Assembly: GCA_963733195.1 (NCBI GenBank) | Contig: CAVTCR010000026.1 | Coordinates: forward strand, 56,046 to 120,045 | DNA: 64,000 bases | From: an uncultured delta proteobacterium | GTDB lineage: Bacteria; Desulfobacterota; Binatia; Bin18 | Reading direction: 5' to 3' | Part shown: in pieces, positions 3,421 through 25,862 of the stretch | How positions within the stretch are numbered: the first letter of the stretch is position 1 | Layout: each line of letters begins with the position of its first letter | Translations under genes and position numbers: made by a program | The notes under the pieces: model-generated | What the model was told of the DNA's origin: nothing | The model's database searches: none | The model's input: the letters and a program-made list of their open reading frames with translations, nothing else

Positions 3421-4463
3421 CTAAGGCACTAGGACCCCCCGGCCAGGCAGACGGCCCGCAATGAGATCGTGCATCGCTTCATTCACCTGGTTAAGCCGGT
3501 ACTCACGAGTAGTGAGTTTTACTTGTCCTTGGGCCGCCAAGGATCATTAGCGCGGACAGCTCGGAATAATTGCCGACCAGCGTGCCGACTACGCTGAACT
3601 CACTAAAAATCATGTCGATCGCCGGGACCTGCACGACTCCCGCCATAGCCAACGACATAGTAAGTCCCGCCGCGCCGTAACATTGCCATGCCCTGGTCAG
3701 GCGTGCCCTTCTCGCCGACAAAATCGATCACCGCATCGGCTCCACCGTCAGTCAGGCGGCGAAGGTCATCCACTGCACCACGCCCGCCTAGCATGCGGTG
3801 TTGAAAGCCCATCTCTGCGGCGAACTGTAAGGCCGGTTCGGAAGTATCCACAATGATAATCGTTCCGGCACACAGGCTGCGCAGCACCTGGGCGGCAATG
3901 TGGCCCAGCCCACCAAAGCCGATAATGGCAGCGGTCATGCCTGGCTTTAAGATTTCTGAGGCTTTGCGTGCTGCCCGGTAAGCAGTGAGACCAGCATCAG
4001 CATACGGTGCCACGGTTTTGGGCTCAAGATTGGCGGGCAGTTTAATCAACGAGCGCTCTTTGGTGTGCAGGAACTGGGCAAAGCCGCCATTATGGCTGAT
4101 GCCTGGAAACCAACTATTCTGGCAGTGCATATCCTCACCACGCCGACAGGCCGGGCAGGTACCATCGGTGACCAAAGGATGGACAATCACCGGGTCGCCG
4201 GGTTTGACTGTCTTCACGTTCGTTCCTACCTCGTGGATCCAGCCAGCGTTCTCGTGGCCGAGAATATAGGGGAGGGGACGGTCTACTTTTGCGCGCCAGA
4301 TGCCTTCGACAATATGCAAGTCCGTCCGACACAGTCCAGCTCCGCCAACACGAACGATGACATCGTCAGGCTCGTGAATCTGTGGATTGGGAAGCTCTTC
4401 AAGTTGAAGAAGCTGTTCTCGTTTCAGCGTTTCATCGAATGCATGAAGTCGAGCTGCTTGCAT
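3421..4463 (-). CDS. NAD(P)-dependent Zn alcohol dehydrogenase (frameshifted near the C-terminus)
   Basis: GLCRTDLH, GHENAG and GFGGLG motifs; C-terminus ...GRLPGRGVLVP* recovered in another frame ending at 3421. Confidence 0.88.
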
Positions 4464-4681: not shown

Positions 4682-5217
4682 ATGAAGAAAAATATCAATC
4701 GTCGTCAGTTCTTGCAGACGAGTGGTCTTGCTATTGCTGGCGCTGCTGTTGCTGGTACGACCGGGACACTACTGCTTGACCCGAGTGCAACTTGGGCAGT
4801 AGCAAAGGCAACACTCGATGACCATACGACTAAAACACTCGTTGTTATGTGTCGCCAGATCTACCCACATACAGTGATTGAGGATGCGGAGTATGCCAAG
4901 ACTGTCGAAGGGTTTACGAAGAAGGCAAGTACCGATCCCAGCCTTTGCTCAGCTATTGCGCGAGGGTGTTGCTACACTTGATGCCACTGCAAAAGGCAAA
5001 TGGCTAGAGGTTAAAGATGAGGACAAGCTTCAAGTCTTAAAAAGTATTGCTGACTCGCCATTTTTCCAAACAGTGCGAGGGACATTGGTCGGATGCTGGT
5101 GGACCGTACAACCTGCCAACGGTGTGGAAGAAGTTCGGCTACGAAGGGTCTTCGTGGCAGTTGGGTGGGTATCTTGCTCGTGGCTTTGACGACATCAAGT
5201 GGTTGCCAAAGGAATAG
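4682..5217 (+). CDS. Tat-exported small subunit of a GMC flavoprotein dehydrogenase (gluconate 2-dehydrogenase subunit 3-like), frameshifted
   Basis: NRRQFL Tat motif; C-terminal VWKKFGYEG..GGY..RGFDDIKWLP in a shifted frame; directly upstream of the GMC gene. Confidence 0.75.
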
Positions 5218-5231
5218 TGAGGGGAAGGATC

Positions 5232-6801
5232 ATGGCGAATTATGAATTAAAAGACGATAGCGTGGTCGTCATCATCGGCTCTGGTGCGGGCGGTGGTACC
5301 CTGGCCAATGAATTGTGTCAGAAGGGAGTGAAGGTCGTTCTCCTTGAAGCTGGCAAACGCATTGAAATTAAGGATTTTGTCAATGATGAGTGGCCGATGT
5401 TCAACAAGATCGCCTGGCTCGATAAGCGGACTACTTCTGGGTCGTGGCGTGTCGCCAAGAATTTCCCCAATCTTCCAGCATGGACAGTGAAAGCTGTCGG
5501 TGGAACGACTGTACATTGGGCTGGAGCGTCGTTGCGATTTAAGGACTTTGAATTCAAAGCCCGCTCGACCTACGGTGAGATTGCTGGTGCGAACTTGCTC
5601 GATTGGCCAATCACACTTAGCTGATTTAGAGCCGTACTATGCGCGCGCTGAGGATAAGATGGGTGTAACGGGGACCAATAGTATTCCTCGCTTGCCGGGG
5701 AACAATAATTTTAAGGTCCTTGCCGCTGGAGCGAAGAAACTCGGTTACAAGCAAGTCCACACTGGCAATATGGCGATTAACTCACAGCCGCGTGACGGAC
5801 GTAGCGGATGTATGCAAATTGGCTTCTGCTTTGAAGGTTGTAAGAGCGGAGCAAAATGGTCGACGTTGTATACGGAGATCCCCAAGGCCGAGGCGACAGG
5901 CAAACTTGACTTACGACCAGAGAGCCAGGTATTGCGTATTCTTCATAACGACAAAGGAAAAGTTTCTGGCGTTGTCTATGCCGACAAAAACGGCAAGCAG
6001 GTCGAGCAAAAAGCCCGGGTCGTCTGTGTCGCTGCGAACTCAATCGAAAGTGCGCGGCTGCTTCTCAACTCTTCCTCGAACACATTCCCAAATGGGTTGG
6101 CCAATTCTTCTGGACAGGTTGGGCGCAATTATATGCGCCATATGACTGGCAGCGTATATGGCATGTTTCCTAACGAAGTGAATATGCACCGTGGCACGAT
6201 AATGGCTGGGATTGTTGAGGACGAAGCGATCAATGATCCGAAGCGTGGTTTTGTCGGTGGCTATCATATGGAGACCATTTCACTTGGGTTGCCGTTCATG
6301 GCCGCGTTTCTTGATCCGGGAGCATGGGGACGCGACTTTACCGAGATGCTCGATCAATTTAATCACATGGCTGGCATGTGGCTGGTCGGTGAGGATATGC
6401 CGCGTGAGAGCAATCGCATCACGTTGCATGCAACTGAAAAAGACCAGTTTGGTATGCCCATTCCTAACGTGCATTTTGATGACCACGACAACGATGTTGC
6501 AATGCGTAAGCACGCCTATAAACAAGGATCTGCAATCTACAGTGCGGTTGGCGCGACGAAAAACTTTGAAACGCCGCCGTATCCTTCAACGCACAATTTG
6601 GGGACCAACCGCATGAGCGAGAAGTCGCGCGACGGTGTGGTGAACAAGTGGGGACAATCCCACGATATCGCTAACTTATTTATTTCTGATGGCAGCCAAT
6701 TTACGACCGGCGGGGCGTCAAATCCAACTTTGACGATTGTAACTCTTGCAATTCGGCAGGCTGAGTATATTACTGAGGCGATGAGTAAGCAGGATATCTG
6801 A
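5232..6801 (+). CDS. GMC family FAD oxidoreductase with Cys-rich 3Fe-4S-type motif (one frameshift near 5620)
   Basis: IIGSGAGGG, VGGTTVHW, CMQIGFCFEGC, HNLGTNRM and NPTLTI motifs. Confidence 0.9.
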
Positions 6802-6923: not shown

Positions 6924-7277
6924 CTACGACGCCGTAAACCCTTTCACGTATTTAATCAGCGCACGAATTTGCTCATCGTTGAGAATTCCCTCATACGAAG
7001 GCATGAGCGGTGATTTCCCGACACTGGCGCCACCTTCCTTGAGGAGTTTCGTCAGATACGCGGTATCCTTGCCTTTGAGGACAGTGGCCAAGTTTGCTGG
7101 CTTAGGTTGTAATACTTGAGCCGTTGGTCCGTCGCCTTTGCCCTCAGGACCATGGCACATGGCGCAGGTTTGGTCGTAGAGTTGCTTCGCTTCTTGCCCA
7201 TAGGCAGCCTCGGCGGCAAGATAAATAAAAAAGACACTCGCAGTGACTAAGAGCACTGGCTTCTGATACATCTTCAT
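6924..7277 (-). CDS. Monoheme cytochrome c
   Basis: Signal peptide, CAMCH heme motif and distal Met in LMPSY. Confidence 0.88.
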   Translation of the reverse strand: MKMYQKPVLLVTASVFFIYLAAEAAYGQEAKQLYDQTCAMCHGPEGKGDGPTAQVLQPKPANLATVLKGKDTAYLTKLLKEGGASVGKSPLMPSYEGILNDEQIRALIKYVKGFTAS

Positions 7278-11519: not shown

Positions 11520-11660
11520 ATGATGGAATAGAGCCGAGATACGAGAGACAGTTGAACCCTCAGCTCGGGGTTAACAGAGATTCAGCGATGGCCTCAGACC
11601 CCTAGACTCTTAGACTCTTCTTCCCATTTCCCCATTTATCCTTTCCCCTCTGCTACACCC

Positions 11661-11779: not shown

Positions 11780-12355
11780 ATGATGACAATGATCGTTGGT
11801 TTGATAATGGGTTCGACAGCTTGGGCACATCGCGATCGAGGACCTGATGATCCATGTCGAAAGCAGATAGGAGATTCGCTATTGCACATCACACTCTACC
11901 AACCGCACTTTGATCCTGATGCTGAGTATTGCGAAGAGGTTCCGCGTGCAGGGAGGACAGTGGTGGTAGTAGATGTGACTGCTGGTGAATTGCGGCAAGT
12001 TCCAATCAGTGTGGAAATGGTAGCTCAGTAGTGAATCTGGGCAGTCGCGTTCGGTGTCTGTCGCTTCCGGCAAAGATATTGGATCGAGGGATGGTAGATT
12101 CTGAAGTGGTTTTGGACGAGGGCAACAATTACGTTGCTGAGGTTGTGGTTGACCTGGGGGCCGGAAAGGAACCGCAGAAATTTTCCTTTCCTATTCAAGT
12201 GGATCCATGGTATACCGCAATGGTGAAACCGGCATTGATGGTTCGTTGGGTTGCTCCTAGTAACGGTAATTTCGGTGATTCGTTATCAGATGAGTTCTCG
12301 ACAGCAGGAAGAGATGTCAGTAGGCAAAAGAAGGGTACGCCGAGTAGCAAATTAA
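11780..12355 (+). CDS. pmoD: PmoD/AmoD-family periplasmic copper protein with C-terminal TM helix (two frameshifts, ~12030 and ~12243)
   Basis: Signal peptide AWA|H; DDPC...HITLYQP...EYCEEVP.AG..VVVVD...ELR matches the PmoD/AmoD pattern; TM VGLLLVTVISVI and stop 12355 sit just before the RBS of subunit C. Confidence 0.75.
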
Positions 12356-12367
12356 GGAGGGTTCTAT

Positions 12368-13225
12368 ATGGCACAGTCACAAGTGGTGCGGCAGACGCCA
12401 CGAGAAAATGGCCACAGTACAACCACGACTGGGTATTCCGCCAAACCGACAGGCTGGATGGTTGGGTGGAAGTCGTTGTTTGTCAGCTGCGCGATCATTA
12501 TGGCAGCGAACGTGTTCCTCTGGTTCTGGAATTACGCCTATATGTTCACGGCCGGGTTGAACTCGGCGAGTCCAGAGTTCACCTATTATTACCGGTCGCT
12601 CTTTTGGGGCGAGGTCATCACGTTAGGCTTGTTTACCGGTATATGGTTTGGCTGGTTGATTAGAACAGGCCGTGAGATGGTCGGGCAACCGTGCGAGCGT
12701 GCGGAAGAGGTGCGACGAATCGCGGTTCTCTGGAGCTTGATTGGCGCTACGAGCCTCTGCGTGTATCTGATGGCTAGCTTCTGGCCGAACTGGGACGGAT
12801 CATGGCATCAGACAATGGTGCGCGATACTGCGCTTACCCCGACGCACATCCCGATGTTCTACTTCTTCTTCCCGTTGTCGGTAACTTTGGCTTTAGGCTC
12901 ATACATCTACGGACGTTTTCGTATTCCCGCGTTATATGCCAAAGAGAAGGGATTTCCGTGGTCGTTCTTCCTGTTGATTAGTGCTGCGGTGCTGGAATGC
13001 ATGACGGTTGCTGCCAATGAGTGGGGGCACAGCCTGTGGATTTCTGAAGAGATTTTCTCGGTCCCCTTCCACTGGCCGTTCGTTGTGTACGGCTGGCTAG
13101 CTAGCGGTATGTTTGCGGTGTGGGGCGAGACGATCATCCGCTTGTTCGAGATTGAAAAGGCTGAAGAAGCCGCGACCTCAGGGACGTCAGGCGCGTCGTT
13201 GCGTCAGCAGGCGGTCACAGACTAA
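12368..13225 (+). CDS. pmoC: CuMMO (pMMO/AMO family) subunit C, divergent; substrate unknown
   Basis: DGSWHQTMVRDTALTPTH (D-x3-H-x12-H) and NEWGHSLWISEEIFSVPFH motifs; RBS aaggagg. Confidence 0.95.
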   Translation: MAQSQVVRQTPRENGHSTTTTGYSAKPTGWMVGWKSLFVSCAIIMAANVFLWFWNYAYMFTAGLNSASPEFTYYYRSLFWGEVITLGLFTGIWFGWLIRTGREMVGQPCERAEEVRRIAVLWSLIGATSLCVYLMASFWPNWDGSWHQTMVRDTALTPTHIPMFYFFFPLSVTLALGSYIYGRFRIPALYAKEKGFPWSFFLLISAAVLECMTVAANEWGHSLWISEEIFSVPFHWPFVVYGWLASGMFAVWGETIIRLFEIEKAEEAATSGTSGASLRQQAVTD

Positions 13226-13335
13226 GGATAATGAAGAATGTGGAATGGAGAATGAAAAATTCAGAGCGAAACGTTCTGAACTCTTCGTTCGTTTTGTATT
13301 TTTCACATTCTTAATTCTTCATTCTTAATTTTTAA
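13226..13335. repeat. Inverted pair of ~7-nt-period tandem repeats between subunit C and subunit A genes
   Basis: aatgaagaatgtggaatggagaatgaaaaat ... atttttcacattcttaattcttcattcttaatt. Confidence 0.7.
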
Positions 13336-13356
13336 TTAGACAGAGAGGATCGCCTC

Positions 13357-14161
13357 ATGGCAGCAGGGACAACAACAGTAACTGACATTGCCGATGCCGC
13401 CGAACGGCAAAAACGGCTGGAACTCAAAGCACTCCTGAACAAGGAGTACAAGTGGATTGATCGCAGCTGGGATATCGTCTTCTGGGTAACGGCGATTTTC
13501 GTGGTCGCCGGTGCAGCGGATATCACGAAGCAGTTGTTCGCCGGTGACTGGGACTTCTGGACAGATTGGAAAGATCCCCAGTGGTGGCCGGTGGTTACCG
13601 CTTTTGCCACCATCATCATTCCCTCTGCTCTGCAATATATCCAATGGGCAGCGTGGCGCTTCCCGACAGGTGCGACATATACATCCTGTTGTTTCTTTCT
13701 TGCAGCCTGGGTTGGACGCTACTTTAATTGGCACATTGCAGAAGCCTATCCGATGAACTTCGTGTGGCCTATTTCCACGATATGCGCAGGGATCATTCTC
13801 GACTTCACGTTGATGAAGACAAAAAGTTTCCTCATCACGTCTTTTGTCGGTGCGCATCTCTGGGCAGTGCTTAGTGTGGGCGTACAATTATGTTCCGCTA
13901 GCTCCCTTTCTACAGCCTGCGATGTTCATGGACCATGTTTTGACGCTCGCTGACGTCCAAGGCATCGTCTACATTCGATCGCAGACGCCAGAGTATCTGC
14001 GACTCATTGAGCGTGGCGCATTGCGAAGTTTTCTGGGTGAGACTCAGTACGTTTCGTTAGCCTTTGCTGGGACTGCGGCTTTCGCTGGATACTGGATTGG
14101 CCAGTTCATTGGTCGGTATCTCGCTGTGTGGCCGATCCGACGATACCTGAAGACTCTCTAA
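13357..14161 (+). CDS. pmoA: CuMMO subunit A, divergent (one extra base near 13870)
   Basis: GDWDFWTDWKD, P.GAT, W..RYF, YPMNFVWP, ADVQG..Y.R..TPEYLRLIERGALR motifs. Confidence 0.94.
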
Positions 14162-14176
14162 GAACATAAAGTACGC

Positions 14177-14431
14177 ATGGGGAAACGGATGAAAACCCGA
14201 CTGGCCGTACCATCTCGACACACCTGGCTGATACATGTGACCATGTTGGCCTGCATGTTCGTGCTGCCTGCACTAGCACACGCACACGGTGGGATGGGAC
14301 CTGATGAAATTGGCCCACCTATTGGCACCGCAGGGTTGATCGGTTTTGCCAGCTATTGGGTGGTGATGCTGTGGCCTTCAAGAAAGAAGAAAGATGAGCT
14401 CACAGACTGGACCCAACAGTCAACACCCTGA
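14177..14431 (+). CDS. Small exported/membrane protein 'x' between subunits A and B (may extend to ~14533 through indels)
   Basis: Signal peptide ending AHA|HGGMG, a TM helix (GLIGFASYWVVMLW), then a basic stop-transfer RKKK. Confidence 0.7.
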   Translation: MGKRMKTRLAVPSRHTWLIHVTMLACMFVLPALAHAHGGMGPDEIGPPIGTAGLIGFASYWVVMLWPSRKKKDELTDWTQQSTP

Positions 14432-14562
14432 CGCTGCAGCGAATGACCTGGACGCCCACGCAAGAGAAAGAACCCTCGTGTGAAGCGGATTCCGCATCTG
14501 CGTAAGGTCGAGGCGGGCGCGACAGATTTCTAGCGACCAGCCCGCGAGGAGGAAAGCGAGCG

Positions 14563-15811
14563 ATGGATAGGAAGCTTTTGACAATCCTCATGACACTGGC
14601 TCTTGTGGTAACAGTCAGTGTCTCGAAAGTATTCGCTCATGGGGAAGCTGGTGACGAACCGTTCCTTAAGAACATGACCACTGCGTTTTATGACGTATCG
14701 GTCTCACCTACGGAAATCGAGGTCGGTCAACCAGTAACAGTAACGGGAACAGTCAAAATTCTCGAGACTTGGCCGCACACACTTGAGGCACCCGAGCTTG
14801 CTGCGATCGTTCCCGTAGTTCCGGGGCCTGTATTCGTCATGAAAGACCGGACTATCAATGACCAAGCCTCGGTAGGTTCGTTTTTTGCCGAGAAGGGTGG
14901 GATTTATCAGTTTAAGATGACACTCCTCGGCAAAGAGCCTGGAAAATGGCATGTCCATCCAGGGATCGCGATCAGTGGAACCGGAACGCTGGTTGGGCCT
15001 GGTGAATGGGTCAACGTGAAAGCCAGCGCGACGAAATTTGAGTTTCCTGTGACAGTTGCTCAATGGGCAGACAGTTGAACTCAACACCTACGGTGGCCAG
15101 TTCGTGTGGTGGTGGTCGTTCGCCGGATTTCTCCTTGGGATGGCGTGGATGGTGTACTGGACATTCACGAAACGAACAGTGACAAACCTTGCGGTGACGA
15201 TGCAACTTCCGGTGAACGATGACGGACCTGACATTGGTCTCATCACGCCACGTGACCACATGTGGATGAATGTCATCGCTGGCCTGACCATAGCGCTCCT
15301 GATCGTTGGCTGGACCTACTCAGCAACCCAATATCCAGTGCGATGGCCGCAGCAGACCGACTGGATTACCCCGCGTCACATTTCCTCGGGAGACAAGATG
15401 GCCGAGGTACATGCAGGCGGAGCCACCTACGATGACGGAACCGATACGTTAGTGATGAAGCTCCAAGTCAAGAACACTACAGCCAGCGCGCTTACTCTTA
15501 ACCGTGTTGTTATCGGGATGGCGACATTCGTGCCGGGCGGGGAAGCGGAACAGGCGAAAGCTGGACCGCGCGATTTCGTCGGACCGCTCGAAGTGGAACC
15601 AAAAGGTGAGATTGCTCCGGGTGAGACGAAAGATCTGACATTGACGATCGCGAGCAAGATTTTCAGTACGGCACGATTGATCCCGCTGAATGATCCGCAG
15701 CAGTTTGTTGCGGCGCTCTTACGCTTTGAGAACGCCCAAGGCGGTCAGCAGTTAGTGACAGTGCGTTCGGGCGTCGTGCCGACCCAGTTCCGTGGACAGT
15801 TCTTGCCATAA
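14563..15811 (+). CDS. pmoB: CuMMO subunit B, divergent (one extra base near 15055)
   Basis: Signal peptide VFA|HGE, GKWHVHP, GPGEW, two TM helices and second cupredoxin domain with IAPGETK; RBS gaggagg. Confidence 0.94.
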
Positions 15812-15921: not shown

Positions 15922-16395
15922 TTAATATCCGGTTGTGACCTCAACCAAAATGTCATCTGGGTCTCGCACGTAGACCGACCCTGCGGTTTCTGTGCCATGC
16001 AAAGAATACGGTACGTGCTTTTCCTTAAGTGTCGTCAGGATCGCAGAGAATTTTTCTGAAGTGGCCTTGAGCGCGACATGATGCATACTGCCGACGCCTC
16101 GGACCGTTCGTGCCGGCCCTTTCTCGGGGAAATCGAAAAACGCTAACTGGTTGCCACCGCCCATATCGAGAAAGATATGGGTAGACGTGGGTTCGTCACG
16201 GTTCGCCATAATCTTGCTGAGGCGCATGCCGAGGACCTCAGTGTAGAAACGGATAGTCGTATCAAGGTCTGAACAAATCAGCGCGAGATGATCGACCCCG
16301 CCAGTGTTGACAGCTTGAGGCGTTCCCTCGTCGGTGGATAGATAGCGTTGTTTGAGTTCTTCACGACGGGCCTGGTACATACTCAGGTCTGACAT
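15922..16395 (-). CDS. VOC (glyoxalase/dioxygenase) family protein
   Basis: GVDHLAL..FYTEVLG, HHVAL, YVRDPDDILVEV motifs. Confidence 0.88.
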   Translation of the reverse strand: MSDLSMYQARREELKQRYLSTDEGTPQAVNTGGVDHLALICSDLDTTIRFYTEVLGMRLSKIMANRDEPTSTHIFLDMGGGNQLAFFDFPEKGPARTVRGVGSMHHVALKATSEKFSAILTTLKEKHVPYSLHGTETAGSVYVRDPDDILVEVTTGY

Positions 16396-16681
16396 AGCAT
16401 TCTCCTACTGTTGCTTCACTCGCTACGGGTCTGATGCCCGAAGCTTGCTGCGAGGTTCTTCACTATTCCTCGCTCTTTTTTTGTTTGTCAACTGCAGATA
16501 GATACTGGCTGACCTCCGCGGTAGACTTTCATTCCGAGTTGCGGCTGCGGCCTCAGATCTGGAACGGCTCGATTGTGACCCTCTGTCCGCCCCAACCTTA
16601 AACGCTGCCTCATGAGGTTCTGCTGCAGCACCTGGCAATGCAAACTTGCCCTGTTGCGCAAGTCAGGATAAACCTCCCCCG

Positions 16682-18450
16682 ATGTTTATTCGTCGTGTTT
16701 TGACATTCATACTTTTTATGGTGATGTTGATGGCTGCTGTGCTGCTCGTGCCAGCTGCATGGCTTCCGCAATCGTGGCAATCTTATTACGCCGCATGGTT
16801 TGGTGAACCCTCGTACGAGGCTCCGCCCAGCAGCCAAAAAGTCGCCATTCCTCCAGCTGAACCATTTTGCCCGGACCTGCATCCTGAGTGGCGCAAAGCG
16901 CAGGAGATCGACGGTGTGACGATTGACGAGTCACTTGCTTGTTCTCCTGATAATCCGTGGGCCATTGCTGCGTTTGTCAAAGGGACGAACAACGTGTCGA
17001 TGGACACGTTGATGAAATCTGGCTTAGCGACCGATGCGGTCGTGATGGGCGAAGATAAAGATGGCGATGGTGATCCTGATGTCGTCACCATCAAGCTAGA
17101 AGTTGCGGAATTCAACGGACGCTCGCCCGATATGTCTGAAGTCATTCCTGCGTTTTTATCGCTCCGGGTATTCAACCGGGATTGTGGGTGTTTGCGCCAA
17201 AGATTGCCGGGATGGCAACAAAGAATGCAGAGACAGTAGAAGCGAACGAATTCCTACGTGCGCCGTCGCCGGTGATCCGCGTTGAACAAGGTGACACCGT
17301 GCAAGTGATTCTTGAAAATACGCACTATTTTCCGCATACGATACATTTTCATGGGGTCGATCATCCTTATTCACATCATGAAGGCCATGGCAACGACGGA
17401 GTACCAGAAGCAAATGAACTGCCTGTGATGCCTGGCGAGAGCCGTGCGTATGAATTTTCGCAAATGGCTCAGTCAGCGATGCATACTGGACATGGGGAAG
17501 TCGATCCCGGCAGACGTCGCACGTTCGAGATGGCACCACGGCATCCAGGGACGATGTTCTATCATTGTCACGTGCAACCGCAGCATCATATTCACATGGG
17601 GTTACAGGGGATGTTTGTGGTCGAGGAGAATCGCCCGAACAATTGGGTGCAGACGTTAAATATTGGTGCCGGTCACGTCCGTCATCCTTCCGTGGCGGTG
17701 CGCGAGAAATATGTGCGTGAGTATGATCTCCATTTTCAGGATATCGATAGTCAACTGAATGATCTGATCAAAAGTACGAACGACCCGCGGGTGTTAGAGA
17801 AGCGGATGAATCGGCAGTATAACATCACAAAGCGTAGCGCCAATTACTTTCTGCTCAATGGGAAATCTTTTCCATATACATTTCGTGATTCGTTGGTAGT
17901 CGTCGAACCGAACGAGAAAGTAAAATTGCGCGTGCTCGCTGGTGGTGAGGAAGGGCTATCGCTTCACCCCCATGGCCATAAAGTAAAAATCACGCACTAT
18001 GATGGCGTGGAGCACAATCCTGTAGCGCAAATTACGCGCGACGTTGTGTGGCTCAGCATGGCCCAGCGGGTGGACTTAGAACTCAACACCACGAATGACG
18101 GTTTACATGGCACTGGCGATGGTGTGTGGTTTCTTCACGACCACAAAGAGCGTGCGTTTACAACTGACGGAATGCATCCTGGTGGCAGTGCTACTGCGAT
18201 CGTGTATCGATCCTATCTTGATGAACGTGGCTGGCCAAAACTGCAAGGCGTCGATTGGTCATTGTTCTTTACTCCACAGTATTATCGGCGTGAGATTCCA
18301 GTGTGGACAACCTATGATCCGACCGGCATGTTTGGCGAACCCGGCCCTGCGACCTCGCGTCTCGGACGGTTTATCTTGCTTGGTTTTGTTGTCGGCGCGC
18401 TCCTGGGATGTTTGACTGTCTTGCTACTATCATTGCGAAAACGTGCGTAA
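16682..18450 (+). CDS. Membrane-anchored two-domain multicopper oxidase (frameshift near 17155)
   Basis: HTIHFHG, YHCHVQPQHHIHMG, LHPHGH and FLHDH motifs; N- and C-terminal TM helices; DKDGDGD loop. Confidence 0.87.
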
Positions 18451-19168
18451 GGCGGACGTGATGTGGTTCATAGTGCTGCTGTTCTTTGCTCTTTTTGTTC
18501 CATCGCGAACTATAGAGGCGCAACCTGCGACGGAGAACCTCACTCCGGCAGACTCAGGCCATGCTCACCACCAACACCAGGCTGCCTCTCATGAACACCA
18601 CGGCATGCAGATGGACATGGGTGGCATGGTGATGAATGAGAATCATGACCAACTGCCGCGGGACTGTGGCAGGATTGCTGGAGAACAAAAAATTACAGTC
18701 CATGCTGGCAGGAAGTACGCGCAGCAGTTCAACGGCACGATGTTCGCGTACGATCAGCACGAATGGGATGTTGCTCCGTGCACGAAAGTGACTGTGACGT
18801 TGGAGAATGAAGATACTGTGCGTCATCAATGGATGCTGCACGGATTGCCACGCTATCTTCATGCCGAGGGCATGTTTCATCTCGAAGTCAACGGACGAGG
18901 GAGTAAGAGTGGAACGTTTATCACACCGGGTGCGAAGAAAACCTACCTTGTTCACTGTGATGTTGCCCAACACATGGAAAAAGGCATGAAGGCCCAGCTG
19001 AAAGTTGGCGGAGGCGATGGTAATCTGCCAAGTATTCCTGGTATTACCGGGGCTCGTTACCCAGAAACATATTCGGGTGCACGAGTTGGATGGGGTACGT
19101 GGATAATTCTTCTTCTGTGTCTGTTTAGTGCTGCTTTGACTGTACGTGGGTTGAGACGGTGGGAATAA
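18443..19168 (+). CDS. Cupredoxin-domain (type 1 Cu) protein with His/Met-rich linker and C-terminal TM
   Basis: Signal peptide, GHAHHQH..HEHHGMQMDMGGM, HQW...HCDVAQHMEKGM; overlaps the MCO stop. Confidence 0.82.
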   Translation: MRKADVMWFIVLLFFALFVPSRTIEAQPATENLTPADSGHAHHQHQAASHEHHGMQMDMGGMVMNENHDQLPRDCGRIAGEQKITVHAGRKYAQQFNGTMFAYDQHEWDVAPCTKVTVTLENEDTVRHQWMLHGLPRYLHAEGMFHLEVNGRGSKSGTFITPGAKKTYLVHCDVAQHMEKGMKAQLKVGGGDGNLPSIPGITGARYPETYSGARVGWGTWIILLLCLFSAALTVRGLRRWE

Positions 19169-19216: not shown

Positions 19217-19837
19217 TTGAAAAGATTTGAGAAACATAATCGTCGGTCTGTACGACTGTCTGGGTACGATTATAATCAGCCAGGAATGTATTTTGTCACA
19301 ATCTGTACCGTGAATTGCGAGTTGTTGTTTGGGGAGGTCGTGGGAGGGAAGATGGTAATGAGCGAGTGGGGAGGGGAGGTAAACGCATGTTGGCAAGCGA
19401 TAAACGCCCATTTCCGACACGTAGAATTGGATGAATTCCAGATCATGCCGAATCACCTACACGGGATATTAACCATTGCCCAGAGGTATGAGGAGGCTCC
19501 CTCGGTCGTAGGGGCGCAGCATGCTGCGCCCCTACAGCGAAATGTGATCTCTCCAAATGTCCATCCGGGCTCACTAGCGGCGATCGTCCGCTCCTTCAAA
19601 TCCGCGGTTTCTGCACACGTCAACCTCCTACGTCAAACCCCTGGTACCCCCGTTTGGCAACGCAACTACCACGAACACGTCGTTCGCGACGAAAACGATC
19701 TTCATCGAATTCGTGAGTACATCCAAACGAATCCCTTGCGCTGGGAACTGGATCGTGAGAACCCCAAGCGGCGAGGTGAAGATGAATTCGACAAATGGTT
19801 TGAGGGAACCACACAGCAAAAGAAGAATCGTCCGTAG
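19217..19837 (+). mobile_element. REP-associated tyrosine transposase (RAYT, Y1/HUH family)
   Basis: RRSVRL.GYDY...G.YFVTICT, IMPNHLHGI (HUH) and WQRNYHEHVVR...IREYI..NP..W motifs. Confidence 0.92.
19508..19535. repeat. REP palindrome (perfect, 28 bp) inside the RAYT coding sequence
   Basis: gtaggggcgcagca|tgctgcgcccctac, read as VGAQHAAPL. Confidence 0.88.
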
Positions 19838-22928: not shown

Positions 22929-24090
22929 TCATCCAGTCCATTGAGTATCGCCGTTCACCCTTCGACAATTCAGGGCGAACGGGGTAATGGGTGCGGGAAG
23001 AAAAACCGTTCGTGCTGAGCCTGTCGAAGCACGAACAGCTAGTGGCACGATTGAATTCGTCAACCCTTCTTCCTTTCTGATCTCATTGAGAAAGCGCCAG
23101 TCGGTACCCTCGGCGATGATCTTCTGTGGGCTGCTCTTGATCATCCCCACCTCATGGAGGCGCAGGGCGTAGAAGCGTACGGTGTCCTCAGGGTCGTACT
23201 CCCGCCACTTGCCATAGGGGATCTCCTTCAGCGTCTGGAGGGCGTGGTCGTAGCTTGTCGTGAAGCCCTTGTCCACAAGAAGCCGGGCGGCCCGTTCTGG
23301 TTCCAGCGCACAGATTCGGTTCGCTTTCAGAATGGCGCGCAGCGCCCGCTTGGTGGCCACCGGATGCTTCCGGACGAAGTCTCGATTCCCGACCACCATG
23401 CAGCAGAAGTACTGGGACCAGGGCCGGTCCTGCGTGGCGTTGACCACCACGTGCACGTGATCCATCTGCTTCGCCCGGAGTTCCTGCGGTTCCGGTGGGA
23501 AGCCCAGAAAGGCATCGATCTTCCTGTCGGCGAGGAGCTGCATCGCCTCAGCCGAGGGGTATGTCGACCCAGTGGATGTCCCTGCGGGGGTCCAGGCCCA
23601 CATACGCCGCAATGCTGGCGAGGAAGACGTGCTGGGGGGACCCCAGCTCGAGCACGGCGACGGTCTTCCCCTTCAAGTCGTGGATCGCGCGGACTCGCTC
23701 GGTCCCGAACAGCTCGAAGCAGCCGACGTGGCCCCCCGCCAGGATAACGATCTGGGTCCCCCGCATCCACCCGGATGATGACCGGCGCGGCGAATTGCAT
23801 GCTGATGTTAGCCTCGCCAGAGGCCAGGGCCGACTCGACCCCTGACGGTTTCCCCTTTCTTGACGTATTGCACCTCGGTGAACCCCTCGCTCCGCAACAA
23901 CTCTTCGGCCACATACTGCGGCGCTTCGCAGATGCCGCGTGGGTATCTGGACCAACCTGAGCGTCGTCGTCTCCGGAGGCGGCTCCGCGGCGAGCGGCTC
24001 GGGTTTCAGGCCAAGAAGTCCCGCGGTTCCCGCCAGGGTCATCCCCAGGAACTCTCGCCGGCTCCAGCCTTCAGCTTGTCGCTTGTTCAT
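22929..24090 (-). CDS. Tat-exported NitT/TauT-type ABC solute-binding protein, copy 1 (several indels)
   Basis: SRREFL; GGHVGCFELFG; DLKGKTVAV; PWSQYFCC; TDWRFLNE. Confidence 0.8.
22951..23038. repeat. Pair of REP-like hairpins (ccgttc...tcga...gaac family)
   Basis: ccgttcacccttcgacaattcagggcgaacgg and ccgttcgtgctgagcctgtcgaagcacgaacag, in inverted orientation. Confidence 0.75.
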
Positions 24091-24098
24091 GGGACACC

Positions 24099-24599
24099 TC
24101 AATCCGGCCAGAATTCACTGTCCATCACCTGCTCTACGGTAAATGGACAATGAATTGGGAAGATCTCTCCACTCAGTCCGGTCTCGTCAATCGCATCGGC
24201 CCGAGCGGCTACGTATTCATCCTCAAGCATTTGGGGGATATATCCCGTCAAGCTCGGACTATCGCGCAGGAGTTTTTGGATCTCGATTCGTCCGTTACGA
24301 ATAGACTGCCGCCAGGAAGCTCCGCGTTTCTCTGACTGAGAGCGCCATTTGAGCAGATGCAGTGTAACGTTCCGAAGGTGGCTCTCTAATGCCCGACGCT
24401 CACGTTTCCCCATGTCCTCTAGCTCCTCCGCGAGATGCGCAATATCAACCTCTGCAAAACGTCGCTGCCGCAGCAGCGCGGCGGTCATCATCGTCCAGGC
24501 GTAGAAATCCTCGTCATACAAGCATAACTCGGAGTGACGTGTGGTAGCGGCTGTACTCATGAGAAGATGTCTCCCCTCTGATGTTTCTTGCTGCTTCAC
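24099..24599 (-). CDS. DUF29 family protein
   Basis: LYDEDFYAW, LAEELEDMG, HLLKW, SW..SI, DSPSL and CPFTVEQ motifs. Confidence 0.88.
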   Translation of the reverse strand: MKQQETSEGRHLLMSTAATTRHSELCLYDEDFYAWTMMTAALLRQRRFAEVDIAHLAEELEDMGKRERRALESHLRNVTLHLLKWRSQSEKRGASWRQSIRNGRIEIQKLLRDSPSLTGYIPQMLEDEYVAARADAIDETGLSGEIFPIHCPFTVEQVMDSEFWPD

Positions 24600-24664
24600 T
24601 GTACGCTTTTTCTTCTTTTCCGACTATTCCTCGAGCGTGCATCGTGCGAGCATGATGCTCACGC

Positions 24665-25685
24665 TTATCCCTTCAACTCTTTCTTAATCTCATTGAGAAA
24701 GCGCCAGTCAGTGCCCTCAGTAATGATCTTCTGCGGGCTGCTCTTGATCATCCCAGCTCTCATGCAGGCGTAGGGCATAGAAGCGCACCGTATCTTCGGG
24801 GTTGTACTCTCGCCACTTGCCGTAAGGGATTTCTTTGAGCGCCTGGAGGAGGATGCTCGTAGTTGTCTGTGTAGCCCTTGCCTATGAGAAGCCGGGCAGC
24901 CTGCTCCGGCTCGCGGCCGCAAGATCCGCCCCCTTCAGAATCGCCCGCACTGCCCGCTTGGTGGCCACCGGATGCTTGCGCACGAACTCCCGGTTCCCGG
25001 CTACTATGCAGCAGAAATACTGCGACCAGGGTCGGTCGAGCGTGCCGTTGACCATCACGTGCCCGATATGCTTCGTCCGCAGTTCCTGTAGTTCTGGCGG
25101 AACGCCCATGAAGGCGTCGATCTTCCCCTCGGCGAGGAGCTGCATCGCCTCAGTTGGGGAATGCGTCACCCAGTTGATATCCTTCTGGGGGTCCAGGCCC
25201 ACGTAAGCCGCCATGCTGGCGATGAAGGTGATAGGGCCACTTCGCAGCTCGGGCACGGCAACAGTCTTCCCTTTCAGGTCGCGGACCGCGCGGACCTGAT
25301 CGGTCCCGAACAGCTCAAAGCAACCGATGTGGCCCCCCGCTAAGATAACGATCGGGTCCCCCGCGTCTAGCCGAATGACGGCATCCGGTACGAAGCACAT
25401 GTTAATGTTAGTCTCGCCAGAGGCCAGAGCTACCTCAAACTCGCGGGCGCCTTCTTTCTTGGCGTATTGCACCTCGGTAAAGCCCTCGTCCCGCAGGAGT
25501 TGTTCGGCCACGTACTGGGGGCCTGACAGAGGTCGCCGGGGTCGTGCCAACCTGAGCGTCGTTGTCTCCGGCGGCGGCTCCGCGGCGAGCGGCTCAGGTT
25601 TCAGCCAAGAAGTCCTGCGGTCCCGGCAAGGGCCAAACCCCCAGGAACTCCGCCGGCTTAAGCCTTGAGGGTGTCGCTGATTCAC
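24665..25685 (-). CDS. NitT/TauT-type ABC solute-binding protein, copy 2 (several indels)
   Basis: Paralog of 22929-24090: EPPPETTTLRL, GGHIGCFELFG, PWSQYFCC, TDWRFLNEIKKELKG. Confidence 0.8.
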
Positions 25686-25862
25686 AGGGGGCTCCTTTTC
25701 CTTTCTGTCTGTCCTGCCATATGTTTCCCCAGTTTATTGATTCCTCTTCTGATGTCATTCAGTGTGAGGAATTATCCTGCCAAGGAGCAAAGTCTGTCAA
25801 TAACAAAGAGGGTTTCTTTGATGGCCAAGCTCCTTACTAAATATCCCTGGCTGCTTCGTGTT

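Follow-up and report, generated by a model that had tools for sequence, protein, structure and literature searches.

The window, i.e. the whole stretch of 64,000 nucleotides analysed here, harbours an operon for a copper membrane monooxygenase (CuMMO) in the order pmoD-like gene, xmoC, xmoA, a small spacer gene (x) and xmoB, followed by a multicopper oxidase gene (Table 1). Both xmoA and xmoB accompany xmoC in the operon, each with one frameshift in the assembly. The protein of a related locus (L068), to which the pmoD-like gene is homologous, matches PmoD (6CPD) with an E-value of 2e-7. The spacer gene (cluster 6), which gives the CAxB layout, was present in 49 of 80 related loci. Low-complexity intergenic DNA of inverted-repeat character was seen at positions 13228-13340 and 11590-11660, and a promoter and terminator scan remained at chance level. 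Further downstream, a REP-associated tyrosine transposase gene (19217-19837) and two or three tandem, frameshifted genes of SsuA-like binding proteins (22929-25733) were found, the latter adjoining the genes of a histidine kinase and of a response regulator whose C-terminus resembles a cyclase.

Table 1. Features of the CuMMO locus (positions refer to the window).
Feature	Position	Strand	Evidence and remarks
Zn-dependent alcohol dehydrogenase, prm-cluster type	3424..4463	-	two frameshifts
gmcB-like small subunit	4682..5208	+	tblastn match to gmcB queries from Methylocella, Bradyrhizobium and Binatia; frameshifts near 4939 and 5093
gmcA, GMC oxidoreductase, acetol-dehydrogenase type	5232..6801	+	+1 insertion near 5614
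c-type cytochrome adjoining the GMC pair	6924..7277	-	
pmoD-like gene	11780..12313	+	homologous to L068 protein; frameshifted (insertions near 12056 and 12242)
xmoC, CuMMO subunit C	12368..13225	+	285 aa, intact; Pfam AmoC, E 4e-44
CuC ligands D143, H147, H160, preceded by Pro-Asn-Trp (140-142)	12785..12847	+	alignment
Ala155 (= HmoC Ala151) and Leu156	12830..12835	+	translation, alignment; Ala155 codon 12830-12832, gcg
CuD ligands N217, H221, H235, and Leu223	13016..13072	+	alignment
xmoA	13357..14161	+	profile match, alignment; one +1 insertion near 13870
small conserved hypothetical gene between xmoA and xmoB	14177..14535 (3' end approximate)	+	frameshifted near 14396 and 14518
xmoB with CuB histidines	14563..15811	+	profile match, alignment; one +1 insertion near 15053
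glyoxalase/VOC-fold protein	15922..16395	-	Pfam Glyoxalase; homologue in 6/80 loci
multicopper oxidase and cupredoxin-like partner	16646..19168	+	34/80 loci; one deletion near 17154

Frameshifts affect pmoD, xmoA, the spacer gene, xmoB, gmcB, gmcA, the alcohol dehydrogenase gene and the multicopper oxidase gene, and xmoC is intact. About ten of them fall within 3-18 kb, and the housekeeping genes at 25-64 kb give profile matches of nearly full length, as would be expected if the cluster were a decaying pseudo-operon in this genome, in which Ala155 would have no current function. Such a decay is nevertheless improbable: the alignable breaks are single-base events, almost all of them insertions, the tested pieces contain no in-frame stops, and the synonymous versus non-synonymous changes specific to the window amount to 10/3 in xmoC, 18/0 in xmoA, 20/1 in xmoB and 53/4 in gmcA. 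The single-base insertions in xmoA and xmoB are probably sequence errors, and assembly error appears likelier as the cause of the frameshifts than very recent decay. Single-base frameshifts are numerous between positions 2000 and 26000 and the housekeeping genes between 26000 and 64000 look whole; assembly quality is probably uneven between these two parts.

By domain and by fold, XmoC is a CuMMO subunit C. Beside the Pfam domain, sequence matches to 14 chains of solved PmoC and AmoC were obtained, and the predicted model (pLDDT 86.6) superimposed on PmoC/AmoC chains with Z-scores of 25-26 and an rmsd of 2.5-3.0 over 236-240 residues (7s4m_C: Z 25.8, rmsd 3.0, 239 residues). The ligands of CuC (Asp, His, His) and those of CuD (Asn, His, His) are intact and all align with solved PmoC. 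The labels CuC and CuD were assigned by alignment together with the pMMO numbering.

The original prediction had drawn attention to an Ala directly following RDT in subunit C. Translation of positions 12821-12847, which lie within the xmoC ORF, gives RDTALTPTH and thereby confirms Ala155 at the proposed codon. In the alignment, this residue shares its column with Ala151 of HmoC from Mycolicibacterium NBB4 (plasmid NC_018022, L001; 295 aa, numbered from the upstream Met) and does not land elsewhere. In this column, PmoC of Methylocystis has Asp, AmoC of Nitrosomonas has Ser and PxmC of Methylomagnum has Pro, so that the states named beforehand for pMMO, AMO and HmoC reappear in the aligned references. 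A shift of HmoC toward smaller substrates upon exchange of Ala for Asp, which the original prediction had likewise named, is backed by two secondary sources: the A151D variant loses far more butane activity than ethane activity (PMC13058606), and Ala is given as characteristic of HMO and Asp of pMMO, with Glu in PMO3, which oxidises acetone (PMC8630023). NBB4 HmoC reads RDT-A-F and XmoC of the window RDT-A-L. The Leu noted in place of Phe is thus present as Leu156, but its interpretation as a specificity signal was rejected, since this position varies within the clade (64 of the 80 genome loci have Leu there, the other 16 Phe).

All 120 listed homologues, out of 337 found, possess Ala in this column (followed by Leu in 117 and by Phe in 3); Ala155 is therefore not a sequencing accident. 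The 80 genome loci give no independent count for Ala, as the scan pattern itself contained DTA[LF]TP. Family-wide, the motif was readable in 56 of 150 cluster representatives, among which Ala (25) was the commonest residue ahead of Asp (16), with a bias toward Ala because the representatives were ranked by similarity to the query. On a quick tree of 49 rows, on which the column changes six times in all, Ala represents the ground state in that half which comprises the actinobacterial HMO, the Binatia clade and several unnamed lineages. As Ala is the ground state in about half of the family, it holds little information on which larger substrate is used. The residue permits a substrate larger than methane and does not select one; it is a weak marker, passed on by descent, that speaks against pMMO and AMO and is no fingerprint of alkane use. 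Three XmoC lineages (P0125, P0129 and P0152) have His in this column, a residue that is absent from the five given for it in the available part of PMC8630023; on the quick tree, the first two of these lineages branch as sisters of the Binatia group.

For sponge-associated Binatota, a divergent methane monooxygenase has been assumed: transcription of pmoA was seen in sponge bin18 and taken as a methane sink (excerpt of PMC9999580), and a methanol dehydrogenase is also encoded in five of the nine Binatota genomes that have this CuMMO type (excerpt of PMC8262859). For the enzyme of the window this function is nonetheless highly improbable, with Ala instead of Asp at position 151, a score of 146 against a cut-off of 281 for the NCBIfam equivalog of pMMO subunit C and no methanol dehydrogenase among the 73 window ORFs scanned. 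Furthermore, a survey from 2026 groups the sequences with hydrocarbon monooxygenases and, in the parts available, describes TUSC-encoding Binatia MAGs as lacking methanotrophic potential. An ammonia monooxygenase can be considered because the fold resembles AmoC and PmoC equally closely and AmoC_BACT is the best-scoring NCBIfam model. It is extremely improbable, however, given that AmoC has Ser in the column, that XmoC scores 166 against a cut-off of 319 for the equivalog of bacterial AMO subunit C, and that no hao was found among the 73 scanned window ORFs or the annotated conserved neighbours.

Other positions of the active site are more distinctive than Ala155 and Leu156. Pro-Asn-Trp precedes the CuC Asp in 80 of 80 loci, where reference CuMMOs have x-Glu-Gln/Glu, and Leu223 replaces the Phe that the references carry in the CuD loop (81 of 81 clade rows). 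In XmoA of the window, Asp-Ile-Thr-Lys-Gln stands at His38-Ile-His-Ala-Met42 of pMMO PmoA, and Asp-Ile-Thr-Lys/Arg was present in all 78 copies read. These altered positions in XmoC and XmoA presumably line a polar site near the metals. Our literature search yielded no account of structural roles for Asp168, Phe233, Phe240 or Glu154 of pMMO.

A scan of GTDB genomes returned 275 matching stretches, and the best 80 of these showed 66-89% identity; most of them bear the label Ca. Binatia/Binataceae, Deltaproteobacteria or unclassified proteobacteria, and a few have other labels. XmoC of the window is 86% identical to that of a Ca. Binatia locus (L010) and 89% to that of L008. In quick trees, the Binatia XmoC loci form one clade (100% support against four actinobacterial rows), and the window sequence lies outside the actinobacterial HMO/BMO clade, in a separate clade on a long branch. 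Operons of the Binatia type were also observed in records titled Proteobacteria, Klebsiella, Enterobacteriaceae, Methylomirabilota and Verrucomicrobiae (L009, L011, L013, L014, L015, L043, L049 and L055), for which either loose labels, misbinning or transfer may account. The operons accompanied by a GldA-like enzyme (L021-L042 and similar) are flanked by a conserved block that encodes CoA-transferases, outer-membrane proteins of the DUF1302/DUF1329 families, F420-type LLM oxidoreductases and a lipoprotein resembling Ser esterases. In L021-L042, L048, L052, L062, L065, L066 and L068, xmoB is followed by another pmoD-like gene, and a subset of L043-L067 has either a fusion of the upstream pmoD-like gene to an SCO1/SenC domain or such a domain in its place.

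The state of position 151 would also fit an enzyme like HMO, i.e. a monooxygenase for C2-C4 alkanes with mainly terminal oxidation, whose neighbours are general alcohol dehydrogenases. In line with this, Ala151 is found in NBB4 HmoC, the closest named sequences in the plasmid records are actinobacterial HmoC proteins (32-38%), the available part of Murphy et al. (PMC8262859) places most Binatota pmoA with actinobacterial/SAR324 bmoA, and a PedH-like PQQ alcohol dehydrogenase occurs in 27 of the 80 loci. The identity to HmoC over the full alignment is only 30-34%, however, the quick tree gives no supported sister relation, and the site is rebuilt unlike that of HMO, with Pro-Asn-Trp in XmoC and Asp replacing His38 in XmoA. 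In addition, the gene neighbourhoods differ: the four actinobacterial hmo loci have neither gmcA nor gldA in flanks of 4-6 kb and instead contain mdo (2/4) and/or an acyl-CoA ligase gene (3/4), whereas no homologue of these gave a match in the 80 Binatia-type loci. We consider this alternative unlikely.

The most informative neighbours belong to two unrelated enzyme types. Within flanks of up to 10 kb, gmcA was found in 41 and a gene for a GldA-like enzyme in 31 of the 80 loci, and both together in none; this exclusivity is local to these 10 kb and applies to the best 80 of 275 loci, which share ancestry. One or the other was present in 72 of 80 loci and in 51 of the 53 full-length loci; six of the eight loci with neither are truncated contigs. 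The two states swap at least four times on the XmoC tree. Among the 41 gmcA loci, 37 also have gmcB and 24 a cytochrome c gene. As gmcA and GldA are unrelated, alternate beside the operon and have acetol as a common substrate, an acetol route is suggested, chiefly on this ground.

The product of gmcA in the window is 71-72% identical to the GMC oxidoreductase of the prm cluster of Methylocella tundrae. It keeps the equivalents of Phe194, His297, Met318, His458 and Asn501 of AceDH with equal spacing, as well as the FAD-linked His motif, and its Fe-S motif (5806-5838) has three Cys as in the Methylocella GMC, identically in all 40 copies read. In M. silvestris, the GMC oxidoreductase Msil_1641 is induced together with prm and is required for growth on acetone; its mutant accumulates acetol and no longer grows on acetone and 2-propanol (excerpt of PMC7364539). 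Verrucomicrobial GmcAB was purified as an acetol dehydrogenase that is inactive on four other alcohols, according to the available part of bioRxiv 2026.06.11.731722. The window protein is a putative counterpart of Msil_1641 and of GmcA of strain SolV. Seven plasmid-borne GMC homologues out of 703 records were inspected: four adjoin a prm-type di-iron monooxygenase, one adjoins gloB and a D-lactate dehydrogenase gene, and all seven have a VOC gene. Homologues of gloB and dld gave no match in the 80 Binatia-type loci. Additionally, the Zn-dependent alcohol dehydrogenase of the window is 53% identical to the enzyme adjoining prmA in Bradyrhizobium CB82. With regard to the second type, GldA of E. 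coli converts acetol to 1,2-propanediol (excerpt of PMC5697356), and the GldA-like protein of Binatia scores above the NCBIfam cut-off for glycerol dehydrogenase and below that of the propanediol-specific model (401 versus 700). The PQQ dehydrogenase of these loci is unlikely to be XoxF; its best solved match is of the PedH type (6ZCV, 421 bits; best methanol dehydrogenase, 342 bits).

The same neighbours could serve the epoxidation of ethene or propene, or another small oxygenate, the resulting diol or hydroxy-carbonyl being taken by GldA, the PQQ dehydrogenase or the GMC oxidoreductase. CuMMOs of the NBB4 type and others accept alkenes, the GldA-like proteins reach 447 against a cut-off of 550 on the glycolaldehyde reductase model, and propene oxide would likewise lead to 1,2-propanediol and acetol. 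Among the annotated conserved neighbours, however, no epoxide-handling gene was recognised, and the adjoining alpha/beta hydrolase, which was tried as an epoxide hydrolase and rejected, is esterase-like, all 27 copies having the motif of a Ser nucleophile. This alternative is improbable.

We consider it probable that XmoCAB feeds an acetol route, in which it would take the slot held by the di-iron Prm/Mim enzyme in proteobacteria. The intact copper ligands, the Ala151 state and the gene linkage are observed features, from which the hydroxylation chemistry is set apart as what we infer. The CuD/CuC centre would hydroxylate a C3 substrate at one of its C-H bonds, most probably at a methyl group of acetone to yield acetol, as is described for Mim-type enzymes (excerpt of PMC7176365), and possibly also at C2 of propane to yield 2-propanol, which the Zn-dependent alcohol dehydrogenase would convert to acetone. 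Acetol would then be oxidised to methylglyoxal by the GmcAB/cytochrome c module and channelled onward to lactate and pyruvate. In relatives without GMC, GldA may convert acetol to 1,2-propanediol, which would be oxidised by the PedH-like PQQ dehydrogenase. That acetone is the main substrate is a more tentative assumption than the route itself. With respect to the substrate, the original prediction was supported in turning away from methane and ammonia; in place of generic C2+ alkanes, the gene context favours a C3 oxygenate metabolised via acetol.

The support for the acetol route is association throughout, and several observations stand against it. The sole proven acetone CuMMO, PMO3, has Glu and not Ala at position 151. 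GMC oxidoreductases of this family are common (61 plasmid records show 60-80% identity) and also occur without monooxygenases, as in three of the seven plasmid homologues inspected; the type of Zn-dependent alcohol dehydrogenase was beside prm in only three of six loci inspected; and GldA and PQQ dehydrogenases are broad enzymes acting on glycerol and glycols. The VOC protein of the window is not of the prm-cluster type, as VOC proteins of prm clusters gave no tblastn match to it, and xmoA, xmoB and gmcAB are frameshifted in the assembly. The main CuMMO of Binatia might even be a dedicated monooxygenase for acetone (or short-chain ketones) that arose separately from PMO3, with Ala151 and a rebuilt polar site made up of Pro-Asn-Trp in XmoC and Asp/Thr/Lys in XmoA; we put this forward as a tentative possibility.

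Taken alone, the Ala residue repeats what phylogeny had suggested, and as an observation it is known in kind. The placement of the Binatia CuMMO as hydrocarbon-type is already in print, and the available part of a preprint (bioRxiv 2026.02.02.703227) puts it among the hydrocarbon monooxygenases. The assignment to an acetol pathway appears to be new: in the openly accessible listings and passages searched, no paper was found that ties this enzyme to acetol metabolism. The main text of Murphy et al. (PMC8262859) mentions neither acetone, acetol, GMC nor methylglyoxal, and in the places shown of its supplements acetone appears only for AcmAB. As the Binatia CuMMO is widespread, judging from the 275 GTDB matches, is counted as a methane sink in sponges and has a substrate stated in print to be unresolved, the linkage to acetol leads to a specific prediction, namely the conversion of acetone or propane to acetol. 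If this is true, a false marker of methanotrophy would be removed, a route for the turnover of oxygenated volatiles would be added, and a second CuMMO solution to ketone hydroxylation would exist. If the enzyme is dedicated to acetone, Binatia would be a widespread, unrecognised acetone sink, and transcribed 'pmoA' would be no sign of methane oxidation.

Among known systems, the Binatota/Binatia CuMMO described as 'Actinobacteria/SAR324' or 'putative pmoA Binatales' (PMC8262859; bioRxiv 2026.02.02.703227) shares the CAxB layout and pmoD with the window, and in their available parts these papers do not decide whether methane, alkanes or both are the substrate. HmoCAB of NBB4 has Ala151, the CuB, CuC and CuD ligands and the CAB order in common with the window at about 32% identity. 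In contrast to it, the window has Leu in place of Phe at positions 156 and 223, Pro-Asn-Trp ahead of the Asp ligand of CuC and Asp for His38 in subunit A, and the Binatia loci have gmcAB/gldA as neighbours instead of mdo and an acyl-CoA ligase gene. In the PMO3 cluster of Methylacidiphilum, the CuMMO adjoins pmoD, gmcAB and the glyoxalase-fold gene gloA, a linkage resembling that of the window; PMO3 oxidises acetone and butanone, not methane or propane, with acetol as the proposed product (available part of PMC8630023). PMO3 has Glu where the window has Ala. AceDH of strain SolV carries a four-Cys/Asp Cu-4Fe-4S motif, whereas the GMC oxidoreductase of the window is devoid of the Asp and the fourth Cys, as is the Methylocella type. 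From the Prm/Mim di-iron clusters of Methylocella, Bradyrhizobium, Azospirillum and Skermanella, the window differs in the monooxygenase itself, which is of the unrelated copper membrane type (no prmA match in the window or the 80 loci), but the same GMC pair and Zn-dependent alcohol dehydrogenase, as judged by sequence, and a cytochrome c are shared by both.
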